In this document: positions 1 to 6,214 of the stretch, piece after piece
Layout: each line of letters opens with the position of its first letter
Numbering within the stretch: the stretch's first letter is position 1
Source: a virus
Lineage: Duplodnaviria > Caudoviricetes
Virus record (IMG/VR): IMGVR_UViG_3300015263_000331
Location: 1 to 47,888 of that record
Reading direction: 5' to 3' (one strand)
Length of the DNA stretch: 47,888 bases
The notes under the pieces: generated by a model
The model's input: only the letters and a program-made list of their open reading frames with translations
Database searches by the model: none
What the model was told of the DNA's origin: nothing
Program-made: the position numbers and the translations under genes

Positions 1-143
1 GACTGTGTGAGCTGGGAGTTGCGGGGCCGGGTCTTCGAGTAGCGCTTCCCGCCGTAGCGGAACTTCCACCAGAAGTACGGCTCACCTGCCTTGACGGCTG
101 GGTTGTCCTTGCGGGCCTTTTTCACGTAATGAACACGTGGCAT
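1..143 (-). CDS. Early phage hypothetical protein, 5' part only (MPRVHYVKKARKDNPAVKAGEPYFWWKFRYGGKRYSKTRPRNSQLTQ...), runs off the left edge
   Basis: ATG at 143-141 preceded by SD CAGAGGAG (158-151); frame open to the window edge; hand-translated, not in the ORF track. Confidence 0.85.
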   Translation of the reverse strand, partial: MPRVHYVKKARKDNPAVKAGEPYFWWKFRYGGKRYSKTRPRNSQLTQ

Positions 144-166
144 GGTGTATCTCCTCTGTTGATGAT

Positions 167-235
167 GATCCTGTCTCTTCAGAGTGGGTAGGATCGGATT
201 CCCACTGACCCCGGTCCTCAGCCGGGGTTTCGACA
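167..235 (-). ncRNA. Hammerhead ribozyme HHR1, type II with pseudoknot
   Basis: Minus strand reads UGUC-GAAA-CCCCGG(CUGAGGA)CCGGGG-UC/AGUGGG(AAUCCGAUCCUA)CCCACU-CUGAAGA-GACA-GGAUC. Full CUGANGA/GAAA/NUH core and three stems; loop I GAUCC pairs with 3' tail GGAUC. Predicted cut between 207 and 206. Confidence 0.95.
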
Positions 236-1024
236 TTACCCTTCCCAGTCGTCAGCCGTGATGGCGGGCTTCTGGGGCACGAACCCGGTGACACGGTCCA
301 TGAGATCATGGAGGCGGATCGTCCGGGGCATCAACTCGATCAGCGACACGCCCTTGTTGGCGGGCTTCAGGGCCTCGGTGGCGGCGTTGAACATGCGCCA
401 TGCGGTCTGCTCGCCGTGGTCGTAGGACGGCTCGTCCCACTCCTGCACGACCTTACCGACCCGGCTGGGGTTGATCACCTCGGACCGCAGCATGTCGACG
501 ATGATGTGGTCGGCCTGCCGCTTGTCCTTGATCCGGTACTCGCGATAGTGCTCCCAGCGGGCCTCCTGATTGACCTTGTAGAGCTGGGTCTGGTTGACCG
601 CATTGCCGATCAGGTCAGGCAGGTCGCGCATGATGTGGACCGTGTGCTTGCGGCTGAAACGAATCTCAGCCGAGAACGCAAGGTTGTCACACACGAAGAC
701 GTGTGAGCCGAAGCCCATCGCAGCCGGGAAGCTCTTGTCGATCGAGTTCCGAATGCCGACGACCAGCGCGAACTCTTCCTGAACTGAGCTTCCATTCAGA
801 AGCTCGATCAGGCCGAAGTACCGGGCCTTGTCGTGGGTCAGGCTGTGCGCCTGATTGCCGAAACGAAAGCCCATCGCCTGCAGCCGCTCTTCGGCCATAT
901 CCACGACGGTCTGGTGACCGACCGGAAAGTAGGTGTCCGTAGCCGGAGGCAGGACGATTCCTTCAAGCTCTTCGCGCTCGACGTGGCTGGCACCGCAGTG
1001 CAGCATAAGGTTTGCTCTTGCCAT
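236..1024 (-). CDS. DUF932-family protein
   Basis: 262 aa with motif GIRNSIDKSFPAAMGFGSHVFVCDNLAFS...RKHT and C-terminal AWRMFNAATEALK, typical of DUF932; SD CAGAGGAG at 1039-1032. Confidence 0.85.
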   Translation of the reverse strand: MARANLMLHCGASHVEREELEGIVLPPATDTYFPVGHQTVVDMAEERLQAMGFRFGNQAHSLTHDKARYFGLIELLNGSSVQEEFALVVGIRNSIDKSFPAAMGFGSHVFVCDNLAFSAEIRFSRKHTVHIMRDLPDLIGNAVNQTQLYKVNQEARWEHYREYRIKDKRQADHIIVDMLRSEVINPSRVGKVVQEWDEPSYDHGEQTAWRMFNAATEALKPANKGVSLIELMPRTIRLHDLMDRVTGFVPQKPAITADDWEG

Positions 1025-1050
1025 GGTAGTTCTCCTCTGTTGAAGTGTGT

Positions 1051-1113
1051 TTGGCAGTCTCTTCAGACCCGGAATGCCAATCCGGGTGACGCCCCCTCCG
1101 GGGCGTTTCGACT
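1051..1113 (-). ncRNA. Hammerhead ribozyme HHR2, type II with pseudoknot
   Basis: Minus strand reads AGUC-GAAA-CGCCCC(GGAG)GGGGCG-UC/ACCCGGA(UUGGCAU)UCCGGGU-CUGAAGA-GACU-GCCAA. Loop I UUGGC pairs with tail GCCAA. Predicted cut between 1088 and 1087. Confidence 0.95.
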
Positions 1114-1204
1114 AGTGTGTGAACAGATAGCCAAGGCTCAGCCAGATGGCCGAGTAGGCAGCGATGGCAGCGTAGGCTTGGGCAAGCGGGATGCGGTATT
1201 TCAT
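1112..1204 (-). CDS. 30-aa hydrophobic membrane peptide (MKYRIPLAQAYAAIAAYSAIWLSLGYLFTH)
   Basis: ATGA overlap with the upstream stop, SD GAGGTG, one hydrophobic stretch; its TAG overlaps the start of HHR2. Confidence 0.65.
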   Translation of the reverse strand: MKYRIPLAQAYAAIAAYSAIWLSLGYLFTH

Positions 1205-1413
1205 GATCCCACCTCACAAGCCTTCAGGAAGCGCTCACGATCGAAGTTGGGGTTCTCGTGGCGGAAGTAGTCCGCCAGCGCTCCAGCCATCGACCTGCGA
1301 GTGGCCTCAGCACCCTTCTTAAAACCGGGTGTCAGGTACTTATCATCAGGATCGAACTTGCGATCACGAACGATGCTTGCGATAGCCTCGAAATGCTTGC
1401 GCGTCATGCTCAT
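1201..1413 (-). CDS. 70-aa early phage protein (MSMTRKHFEAIA...ENPNFDRERFLKAC)
   Basis: True start is the ATG at 1413 after SD CAGAGGAG (1427-1420); the longer ORF-track version runs through HHR3. MTRKHF and NPxFDRERFLxAC motifs recur in small phage proteins. Confidence 0.85.
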   Translation of the reverse strand: MSMTRKHFEAIASIVRDRKFDPDDKYLTPGFKKGAEATRRSMAGALADYFRHENPNFDRERFLKACEVGS

Positions 1414-1431
1414 GTTGGTCTCCTCTGTCGG

Positions 1432-1498
1432 TGGCAGTCTCATCAGTATCGGAATGCCAATCCGATATACCTGCCCCTCCTCTAGGACAGGTTTCAAC
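1432..1498 (-). ncRNA. Hammerhead ribozyme HHR3, type II with pseudoknot, GUA cleavage triplet
   Basis: Minus strand reads GUU-GAAA-CCUGUCC(UAGAGGAG)GGGCAGG-UA/UAUCGGA(UUGGCAU)UCCGAUA-CUGAUGA-GAC-UGCCA. Loop I UGGCA pairs with tail UGCCA. Predicted cut between 1468 and 1467. Confidence 0.92.
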
Positions 1499-1529
1499 GA
1501 TGGCCGGGATTAACCCACACCGGCAGGGT

Positions 1530-1570
1530 CCGTTCACCCTCCCGGCACTAGAAGCCGGGAGGGTTTGCGG
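1530..1570. other. Strong GC-rich intergenic hairpin, possible processing, stability or terminator-like element
   Basis: ACCCTCCCGGC-N7-GCCGGGAGGGT perfect 11-bp inverted repeat (1536-1564), extendable by CCG/CGG; no clear U-tract. Confidence 0.55.
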
Positions 1571-1573
1571 TAG

Positions 1574-2062
1574 CTATACAGCTTCACGCTTGGTGGCTTC
1601 GTCACCAGTGGCGATCTTCAGGGTGAAGTGGAACCCACGGCGCTTCTTCGCCGGGGTGGCTTCGGACTGCGTGTAGCGAACCGTGTCGATGTATTCGACC
1701 AGATCGTCGTCCAGATCAGGCACGAAGTTCCTGATCTTGTAGTGAGCCTCGGGCGGCAGGTAGACCTTGTAGATGCAGTAGCCTTGCGGCTGCATCGTAC
1801 GAGCATTCATATCACGCTCTTCCTGCAGGCGCTGGCACTCCCTGAGAGAGGCATGTGTCTGCCAGTAGGCAGCGCTGCTGGTGAAGAAGTGGTACTCACG
1901 CTTGCGATCTTTTCTCCAGCGGTCCTCGCGGAAGCTAGAGATCACTTCGAGGCAATCCTCGAAATCATCAGCCGTGGCGTCACTGCCAGACTGGCGCAGA
2001 TCGGGGATCAAGGTTTCACGCAGATGGGTGACCAGTGCGTAGATATTGTCGAAGCTATGCAT
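1574..2062 (-). CDS. First early gene, hypothetical protein (162 aa)
   Basis: SD CAGAGGAG at 2076-2069, ATG at 2062; no family recognised. Confidence 0.85.
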   Translation of the reverse strand: MHSFDNIYALVTHLRETLIPDLRQSGSDATADDFEDCLEVISSFREDRWRKDRKREYHFFTSSAAYWQTHASLRECQRLQEERDMNARTMQPQGYCIYKVYLPPEAHYKIRNFVPDLDDDLVEYIDTVRYTQSEATPAKKRRGFHFTLKIATGDEATKREAV

Positions 2063-2084
2063 TTCGTTCTCCTCTGTTGATGGG

Positions 2085-2152
2085 TGGCCTGTCTCATCAG
2101 AGCGGGTAGGCCATCTCCCGCTGACCCCGTCGTGGTGACCGGGGTTTCAACA
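2085..2152 (-). ncRNA. Hammerhead ribozyme HHR4, type II with pseudoknot
   Basis: Minus strand reads UGUU-GAAA-CCCCG(GUCACCACGA)CGGGG-UC/AGCGGG(AGAUGGCCUA)CCCGCU-CUGAUGA-GACA-GGCCA. Loop I UGGCC pairs with tail GGCCA. Predicted cut between 2123 and 2122. Confidence 0.95.
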
Positions 2153-2418
2153 ATCAGAGGAGGAGATTGTTGAGTAGGGCGAGTCGTTACCTTCTGTCCC
2201 CGAGCGGTTTACGGCTTGCTCCGCTTGCCTCGGGAAGGTCGCTACTACCAACGTCGCTTCTACAGGTTCCTGCTGACATTCGCCTTTCGGCCAAGTGGTC
2301 AGACTACGCAGCGTCTTCCCGTCCCCAGTTTCACCGAGTGGGTCTCGTCGAAGTCTTGGCTTCGCTTCCCCGGCCAGTGCCAGATGGGGGCTGTGGGCCG
2401 TGGTCACGTCCTGTGACA
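2153..2418 (-). ncRNA. Structured 5' leader of the early transcript, candidate novel ncRNA
   Basis: About 265 nt between the promoter and HHR4 with no SD-led ORF. Contains a 5' hairpin GUCAC/GUGAC, a GCC-GAAA-GGC tetraloop and a long interrupted stem at 2252-2169. Confidence 0.5.
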
Positions 2419-2424
2419 GCTCCC

Positions 2425-2453
2425 ACTTTAGGGGAACCCAGTTCCCATGTCAA
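2425..2453 (-). promoter_or_regulatory. sigma70-type early promoter (leftward)
   Basis: TTGACA (2453-2448), 17 bp spacer, TAAAGT (2430-2425); A-tract upstream resembles an UP element. Confidence 0.8.
2432..2446. promoter_or_regulatory. Palindromic operator-like site in the promoter spacer
   Basis: Perfect GGGAAC-N3-GTTCCC; a 10/12 match GGGAAA-GGA-GTTCTC lies at 2485-2499. Confidence 0.5.
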
Positions 2454-2542
2454 CTACTTTTTATCCAGATGCTCGATAGGATGTGGGAAAGGAGTTCTCT
2501 CAGGCACTCTTTATATAGAGGTTCGTGTTGCGGGATTCTTCG

Positions 2543-2551
2543 TGCTATAAT
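2543..2551 (+). promoter_or_regulatory. Extended -10 promoter (rightward)
   Basis: TGcTATAAT, a perfect extended -10, about 30 nt upstream of the ATG at 2581. Confidence 0.7.
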
Positions 2552-2580
2552 CGAGTGGAATCAAACACTTGGATCAGGAA

Positions 2581-2754
2581 ATGGCGCAGAATCAAGTACC
2601 TACACGGAAGCCCATACAGCGCAGGACGACGATGAAGCAGCTTGCGGACTGGGGCAATAGGGCTTTACCGCCTGAATCTGAGTTCAAACCGTACCTGTTC
2701 GGAAACGGGACCAAAGAGAAGAAGGCAGGGAAGGGAGCCTACGACGGAAGTTAA
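2581..2754 (+). CDS. Small basic hypothetical protein
   Basis: First ORF after the rightward promoter; AGGA upstream of ATG 2581. Confidence 0.5.
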   Translation: MAQNQVPTRKPIQRRTTMKQLADWGNRALPPESEFKPYLFGNGTKEKKAGKGAYDGS

Positions 2755-2778
2755 ATCGAGCTGCGAACGAGGTGCCAC

Positions 2779-3015
2779 ATGCAAATCACACCTGCGGTCC
2801 GTGCGACCGTGATCACCGAAGTCATCGCCGAGCTTATGAGCTATGGCCACCACTACGCTGCCGGACACGTCAACAGTTGCCGAGAGCGATTGCTTGCACG
2901 CCATGCCGGGGAGTGTGGTCATGTTGTACGAGATAGTACCAACACCGAAGCCGAGGATGACGCAACGCGACAAGTTGCCGTCACGGGTCAAGCCGCCTCG
3001 GCCACCGGTTGCTAG
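2779..3015 (+). CDS. Hypothetical protein
   Basis: SD GAGGTG before the ATG; overlaps the next gene. Confidence 0.45.
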   Translation: MQITPAVRATVITEVIAELMSYGHHYAAGHVNSCRERLLARHAGECGHVVRDSTNTEAEDDATRQVAVTGQAASATGC

Positions 3016-5790: not shown

Positions 5791-5973
5791 GGTGACGTGA
5801 TTTCTCTACCAATACACCCAGAAAAGGACGACAGCGACATGGTTTGGGGTTGCAACCAGTGTGGCGAGACACGCCACTACCTGCATGACGATGGCTCTGT
5901 TTCATGCGGTGGCTGTCACGCTGTTTTTGAGGACATCCAGCACTTCAACCCGAAGGAAACTGACAATGGATAG
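5788..5973 (+). CDS. Small zinc-ribbon protein
   Basis: CNQC...CGGC; TGATG coupling. Confidence 0.65.
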   Translation: MGDVISLPIHPEKDDSDMVWGCNQCGETRHYLHDDGSVSCGGCHAVFEDIQHFNPKETDNG

Positions 5974-6214
5974 GATGAGGGATGAACTTCAGATACAGGA
6001 CTGTGGGGGCATTTGGTGCATAACGCGCAATGGTGTTGTTATCCGGCCTGCTGATGAAATTGACAAGGAGTTGGTTGAACGCATTAACACCCTCGAAGCA
6101 CAGCTTAGTAGCCTGTCCCTGTATAGCGAAGCGGTTGCTGAGGTTTGTGATGAGGATATATTCAATCGTATCGAGAGTGAGTGGAATCTCCGTAAGGAGG
6201 CGCGGGATGAGTGA
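5966..6214 (+). CDS. Hypothetical protein
   Basis: ATG 5966 after AAGGA; contains the LEAQL module. Confidence 0.6.
   Translation: MDRMRDELQIQDCGGIWCITRNGVVIRPADEIDKELVERINTLEAQLSSLSLYSEAVAEVCDEDIFNRIESEWNLRKEARDE

Follow-up and report, generated by a model that had tools for sequence, protein, structure and literature searches.

The window analysed here is one 47,888-nt virus contig of marine sediment origin; the whole genome is up to 66,486 nt. The phage has an SU10-type portal protein, and its closest cultured phages are Vibrio phages (38%). A leftward operon spans 2417 to 1 on the minus strand, with small genes spaced by four type II hammerheads in the order 162 aa, 70 aa, a 30-aa peptide, DUF932 and a gene truncated at the window end. 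Its layout suggests that the operon is early. Between the promoter and the first hammerhead (HHR4) lies a leader of about 270 nt. From the promoter leftward, the features are:

2453-2425 (-), sigma-70-like promoter TTGACA-17-TAAAGT, 10 of 12 matches
2432-2446, operator-like perfect 6-bp inverted repeat in the promoter spacer, putative function
2403-2417 (-), 5' hairpin GUCAC-AGGAC-GUGAC with GGA in the loop, P 0.71
2173-2402 (-), leader body, probably non-coding, ill-defined fold, no homolog found
2148-2172 (-), lock hairpin of 8 bp, CAACAAUC (2172-2165) with GAUUGUUG (2155-2148)
2156-2164 (-), anti-SD loop UCCUCCUCU, antisense to the SD tails of the four cassettes
2083-2152 (-), HHR4, type II hammerhead, cut predicted after C2123
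2069-2077 (-), SD cassette tail ACAGAGGAG of the first gene, predicted cis target of the loop
1574-2062 (-), first gene, 162 aa, 0 families and 0 relatives found
1420-1499 (-), HHR3, GUA site, SD tail common to the cassettes
1032-1113 (-), HHR2, SD tail common to the cassettes, precedes the DUF932 gene
1024-236 (-), DUF932 gene, preceded by HHR2
151-235 (-), HHR1, SD tail common to the cassettes

The promoter call leans mainly on position, since the excess of sites as good as TTGACA-17-TAAAGT in 1-3000 is small (2 versus 1.1 in shuffles). Transcription would begin at about G2417, where the 5' hairpin starts; together with a cut after C2123, a start at about 2417 gives an RNA of 295 nt. A copy of the operator-like repeat with two mismatches lies 53 nt off at 2485-2499, and an extended -10 for the rightward operon (TG-C-TATAAT) at 2543-2551; with 2432-2446 these would make up a divergent control region. 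For the 162-aa first gene, ESM Atlas gave no usable match. Further into the operon, a 30-codon hydrophobic peptide ORF (1204-1112, minus strand) ends at HHR2 and has a coding-like score (+0.27); a comparable short ORF stands ahead of a hammerhead at locus L095. Past window position 1, the source contig aligns again to 149-233, 458 bases beyond the end, which is likely a fifth hammerhead cassette.

Two of the four hammerheads score above the Rfam cut-off, a third has an E-value of 0.038 and the fourth was called with our own descriptor. By its score (38.1 bits against a gathering cut-off of 37), HHR4 is classed as a member of RF02276. Its core has CUGAUGA, GAAA and a GUC site, with stems I (6 bp) and III (4 bp plus A-U) closed and stem II (4 bp) open. 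Loop I UGGCC (2113-2109) can pair with GGCCA in the tail (2089-2085) as a pseudoknot. We compared it with 285 distinct phage hammerhead cassettes gathered from IMG/VR, a pattern-selected and partly redundant set; the two hammerhead scans covered 13/64 and 45/64 parts. At 10.1-11.1, where G-C is customary without being essential, HHR4 has G-U, found in 9 of these 285 hammerheads against G-C in 274, and with so rare a pair it may be slow or inactive. A natural hammerhead ribozyme with even U-U at 10.1-11.1 has been reported (PMC3088659). The tail ACAGAGGAG occurs four times in the window, each time after a hammerhead, with SD copies CAGAGGAG at 158-151, 1039-1032, 1427-1420 and 2076-2069.

A sequence-only reading had described the stretch 2123-2418 as a candidate structured RNA. 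The pairings that it listed are all in the sequence: the 5' hairpin at 2417-2403, GCC-GAAA-GGC at 2291-2282, GCCAAG at 2360-2355 with CUUGGC at 2295-2290, and all six segments of a stem at 2252-2169. The 5' half of HHR4 itself makes up the final 30 nt of this stretch (2152-2123). As a well-defined structured RNA the body gains no support, having neither excess stability over shuffles nor a homolog. The whole leader RNA has a z of -0.89, with 40 of 200 shuffles folding as well, and 2150-2417 a z of +0.28 (27/40 as good). Taken alone, the 5' hairpin is not above chance (24/200 shuffles). The long stem 2252-2169 is equalled in 18/200 shuffles, and a 92-nt window of the same stability turns up in 59/60; perfect 6-mer complements in the leader number 18, versus a shuffle mean of 22.5. 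Two mutually exclusive cores are predicted in the body, 2321-2315 with 2237-2231 or the 2252-2169 stem. The released RNA prefers the former (P 0.62), and the segments of the latter have pairing probabilities of 0.00-0.41 in it. The GCCAAG/CUUGGC pair, which overlaps the GAAA hairpin by two bases, has probability 0.0 in the released RNA. A z near zero would still be compatible with a tertiary-structured RNA; the leader analyses show no sign of one.

As that reading had found, the leader matches no known family: the best Rfam match is noise (WT1-AS_4, E 9.2), and a tRNA/tmRNA search found none. We rejected an HDV-like ribozyme, with its nested double pseudoknot, around the GAAA hairpin (0 matches with a loose descriptor of our own; no Rfam match). 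Searches by blastn gave only hammerhead pieces and short matches among 50,697 phage records, and no homolog among 72,556 plasmids (best E 3). Blastn and nhmmer against 559 loci (2.65 Mb) gave no leader homolog (best nhmmer E 3.7), and five leader-bearing records gave one 14-nt match only. An exact leader-motif scan of IMG/VR had 0 matches, locus scans by single proteins found no relative, a genome scan had 48 matches with 0 hammerheads by our own descriptor, and in one DNA dataset no contig besides the possible source covers 2141-2996. No leader homolog, and hence no covariation, came from these searches, in which the metagenome scan covered 24/64 parts. Roughly 30 relatives have portal identities of 64-77%, and DUF932 relatives lie at 70-79%. 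The same cassettes recur in two contigs whose DUF932 is at 75-79%, with the ACAGAGGAG tail in 6/6; neither reaches the operon head. The sole complete relative reached (portal 65%) lacks hammerheads and a leader of this kind, and its DUF932 operon is inverted. Candidates rejected as homologs were a 27-nt leader match in L073, which sits in a long reading frame, and non-coding regions of L312 and L475, which gave scattered matches only when aligned. In L312, from the complete relative, the non-coding stretch 5914-6098 is RNA-like (z -2.1) and has at its end a T-arm resembling that of a tRNA, and CCA; neither ARAGORN nor Rfam called it.

The above-chance signal of the leader is its last 25 nt, not its body. 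That the leader is complementary to the identical SDs of four early genes had been noted from the sequence, and the match is present beyond chance. The 8-nt SD complement CUCCUCUG lies at 2162-2155, with just seven of its eight bases in the loop, and occurs in 18/2000 shuffles; the 8-bp hairpin occurs in 53/2000, and the leader-SD duplex is equalled by 2/200. An incidental 8-nt SD complement has a chance of about 1% anywhere in the leader, and a lower one within the loop. The 3' strand of the hairpin is the 5' strand of HHR4 stem II plus the first G of GAAA, so the hairpin and the active ribozyme are mutually exclusive. The loop can pair across the ribozyme with the SD at 2076-2069, some 80 nt further downstream, lengthening stem II. 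The region 2060-2170 has a z of -3.7, with 0/200 shuffles as good.

Predicted folding of this module is balanced between two states. The precursor 2417-2050 has P 0.46 for the hairpin and 0.42 for anti-SD:SD pairing; in nascent RNA to 2084, or with the SD blocked, P(hairpin) is 0.999. Reaching the active fold costs 9.5 kcal/mol when the SD is free and 12.0 when it is blocked; adding 60 nt of upstream context gives 9.2 and 16.9. These absolute values are unreliable, as pseudoknot and core contacts are missing from the folding model. Binding between the fragments after the cut is about -5.5 kcal/mol (cofold). With the body shuffled, the 3' module keeps SD pairing in 40/60 runs, so far as folding predictions go making the body dispensable for that pairing; balanced two-state folding also appears in 11/60 shuffled bodies. 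The sequence-only reading had HHR4 freeing the leader as a discrete RNA. The predicted cut does give 295 nt; since the anti-SD lies in a hairpin locking stem II and the nearest SD is in cis, both of which that reading overlooked, release itself is predicted to be conditional.

HHR4 stands out from other phage hammerheads in these properties. From 262 rows, 219 remained after removal of those without a clear SD, sufficient flank or full stems. Within that set HHR4 ranks 1/219 both for active-fold cost with the SD blocked (mean 4.3, sd 2.4) and for SD dependence, the blocked minus the free cost (mean -0.2, sd 1.7); with the SD free its cost ranks 5/219. Its stem II lock of 8.8 kcal/mol ranks 1/284. 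The upstream-to-SD duplex (-15.0) ranks 1/221, against a mean of -5.3, and is reached by 12 of 3192 genome windows. The measures on which HHR4 ranks first share the same 25 nt, picked after inspection, and therefore count as one line of evidence. SD dependence is absent from 8 other first-in-array hammerheads, with differences of -4.0 to +2.6 versus +4.7 to +7.7 for HHR4. Non-coding upstream DNA does not predict locking (46 versus 238 hammerheads, p 0.22).

The 78-nt non-coding spacer ahead of HHR3 (1573-1499, minus strand) contains two hairpins, one of them of 11 bp (z -3.9, 0/200 shuffles as good). Its last 30 nt can pair with the HHR3 tail (-14.1, rank 2/221); HHR3 shows no SD dependence despite this pairing.

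The place of the leader is of a known kind. RAGATH motifs are non-coding RNAs of unknown role beside self-cleaving ribozymes, and the leader has a RAGATH-like location, standing among ribozyme-associated phage genes. In L274, the first-in-array slot after the promoter holds RAGATH-24 (RF03049; 81.6 bits); there (minus strand, 543-295) RAGATH-24, a weak twister-P1 match and a hammerhead stand in a row behind a promoter-like site. Elsewhere the slot holds uncatalogued leaders, so its occupants differ. At L475:1795-2081, a leader of about 285 nt (z -3.6) has a closing stem that takes the stem II strand of the first hammerhead; it had no match in Rfam or GenBank phages. L487 has a folded leader before its first hammerhead (z -2.2). 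L267 (minus strand, 656-362) and L428/L501 have related leaders, 73% over 235 nt, with no Rfam family; one of the L267 and L428 leaders carries boxA-like text. RAGATH covariance models gave no match to the present leader at E<=10. The cultured Roseobacter phage CRP-212 (L307) has two unannotated type II hammerhead cassettes with a shared tail and is a possible bench model.

We tentatively propose, giving the idea slightly less than an even chance, that the terminal hairpin 2172-2148 is a cis switch through which HHR4 would cut, and the leader be released, mainly when the SD of the first gene is free. During transcription the lock hairpin is predicted to form first, leaving HHR4 unfolded. The loop and the 30S subunit would then compete for the SD. 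With a ribosome in place HHR4 would stay locked; an unoccupied SD would base-pair with the loop, opening the hairpin and favouring the active ribozyme while the SD is hidden. After the cut, the hairpin would probably re-form and the fragments part, returning the SD to the first gene and freeing 295 nt of RNA on which the anti-SD loop is exposed. Support for the switch comes entirely from predicted folding in one genome. The 230-nt body is most likely a passenger RNA of the RAGATH slot.

The released RNA could instead act mainly in trans, as a repressor of the identical SD tails that silences the early genes as it accumulates, a role that can coexist with the cis switch and that the sequence-only reading had also raised. 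Its anti-SD loop is predicted to be unpaired (P 1.0) and to give -11.6 kcal/mol with each of the four tails, at a target opening cost of 0.5-4.6; among 24 other starts tested, one gives stronger pairing (-13.4) and another comes close (-11.2). It also fits such a repressor that within the window ACAGAGGAG is confined to the cassettes, as well as marking those of the two relatives, and that cuckoo sRNAs use anti-SD loops (PMC4615179). A weaker echo comes from two unrelated arrays, L473 and L477, in which 6 nt close to the first cut are antisense to the array's own tail; in L477 they sit in a small hairpin also taking stem II, and in L473 in the stem III loop. Against the repressor, the 9-nt loop offers a 7-bp seed and longer pairing costs 10.2 kcal/mol to open, the tethered cis target would compete, and only 2 of 14 other leaders with an SD reach 9/200 shuffles or better. 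Shared tails are usual in arrays (16/20, the present window included), so tail identity needs no repressor. Given these common tails and the short seed, we consider trans repression doubtful as the main function.

L473:1344-1395 and the first L476 hammerhead are both first-in-array and have an enlarged stem III, which in L473 displays CUCUCC, complementary to the SD tail of that array.

We think it unlikely that the leader is instead a RAGATH-type cargo RNA, such as a protein decoy, freed by HHR4, with the hairpin aiding product release and protecting the 3' end and the SD match incidental. The occupants of the same slot in L274, L475, L487 and L267/L428 speak for it, as does the GGA pentaloop hairpin at the predicted 5' end, one of 4 such 4-bp hairpins across the window. 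Counting against it are the z of the body near 0, unlike L475, a mere two A(N)GGA sites and seven GGA in 295 nt, and the low chance of an incidental SD complement.

Least probable, and in our view very unlikely, is a decayed or translated frame without RNA function, either the 86-codon ORF 2407-2147 or a 126-codon plus-strand frame from 2170. Such a frame would accord with the GC of the leader stretch, which at 0.60 is gene-like and unlike the promoter gap (0.45), and with the habit of most hammerheads of directly following a stop codon (ORF end at most 25 nt from GAAA in 142/172, a count that includes the 86-codon ORF). On the plus strand GGAGG stands six bases ahead of TTG, and an SD of the 126-codon frame would explain the purine run. 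The codon scores of the two frames are -0.136 and -0.441, however, versus +0.27 to +0.37 for four operon genes; one small plus-strand gene also scores low (-0.09 per codon). ORFs of at least 86 codons arise in 299/5000 shuffles. For the 86-codon ORF, searches gave no homolog at E<=10, nothing in Pfam or PHROG and no usable match in ESM Atlas; its GTG falls within the 5' hairpin, 10 nt after the predicted transcription start, and the predicted transcript offers it no SD. Neither frame is among the called proteins, though two neighbours are, a weak sign as a real 57-aa gene is absent too. By these sequence measures the stretch is likely non-coding, in agreement with the sequence-only reading.

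Two other roles suggested there fared less well. Antitermination elements of the put and boxA kinds go with downstream terminators and a boxA-like motif. No minus-strand terminator is predicted in 1-2417 and no boxA-like match was found with three boxA motifs and two mismatches allowed, which leaves a put-like antiterminator unsupported. A ligand sensor gained no support, and likewise nothing counts against it.

Hammerhead-punctuated operons with RAGATH-type leaders are already known. In the clustered type II hammerheads that flank prophage genes (Perreault et al. 2011) and the HHphage of haloviruses HF1/HF2 (PMC3088659), tandem hammerheads lie between short genes of one transcript, with a loop I/tail pseudoknot and a hammerhead just ahead of the first early-transcript ORF, all as here. 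In contrast to what is predicted here, no upstream stem II lock hairpin, anti-SD or released leader RNA is described in the main text of that paper, where 'Shine-Dalgarno', 'ribosome binding' and 'leader' have 0 occurrences. Engineered hammerhead switches, in which an extended ribozyme stem hides the ribosome-binding site and cleavage frees it, are similar in principle (PMC3664830). Those described there are synthetic, with an extended stem I, a type III-style scaffold and an added sensor; the leader module is natural, uses type II stem II and includes a competing hairpin, through which folding would come to depend on SD pairing.

Cuckoo (CcsR) sRNAs also carry an anti-SD-like C/U motif in a hairpin loop, CCUCCUCCC, which agrees with the leader loop UCCUCCUCU at 7/9 positions (PMC4615179). 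As described there, they have 2-4 adjacent motif hairpins, in contrast to one in the leader, which is phage-borne and fused to a ribozyme. The start-associated sequences of cluster K mycobacteriophages are a repeated extended SD tag with a proposed unknown RNA or protein partner (PMC3203893); here the tag lies within the hammerhead cassette and a candidate antisense partner is in the same transcript. Csr/Rsm sponge sRNAs share GGA in a hairpin loop with the 5' hairpin 2417-2403 (PMC4333381) and have numerous sites, whereas the leader has the two noted above and no Rfam match. By the features tested, the leader is outside the RAGATH, cuckoo and Csr/Rsm families. In the literature searched, which included few subscription papers and had supplements outside its scope, we found no natural SD-coupled phage hammerhead.

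If the switch is wrong, the leader is another uncatalogued one in a known slot. If it is real, it would be a natural counterpart of engineered ribozyme-RBS switches and would suggest a partner for repeated phage SD tags. The 125-nt module 2176-2050, with its two exclusive pairings, offers a compact and fully specified test of SD-dependent cleavage. The purpose of hammerhead arrays in phage operons has been stated to be open (PMC6765202; PMC3088659). In a fuller scheme, which we consider improbable as a whole, a first SD left untranslated would unlock HHR4 and the released 295-nt RNA would then silence all early genes with the same tail. Were this so, the phage would pass from early to late expression through a protein-free switch, and phage hammerhead arrays would have a specific function.
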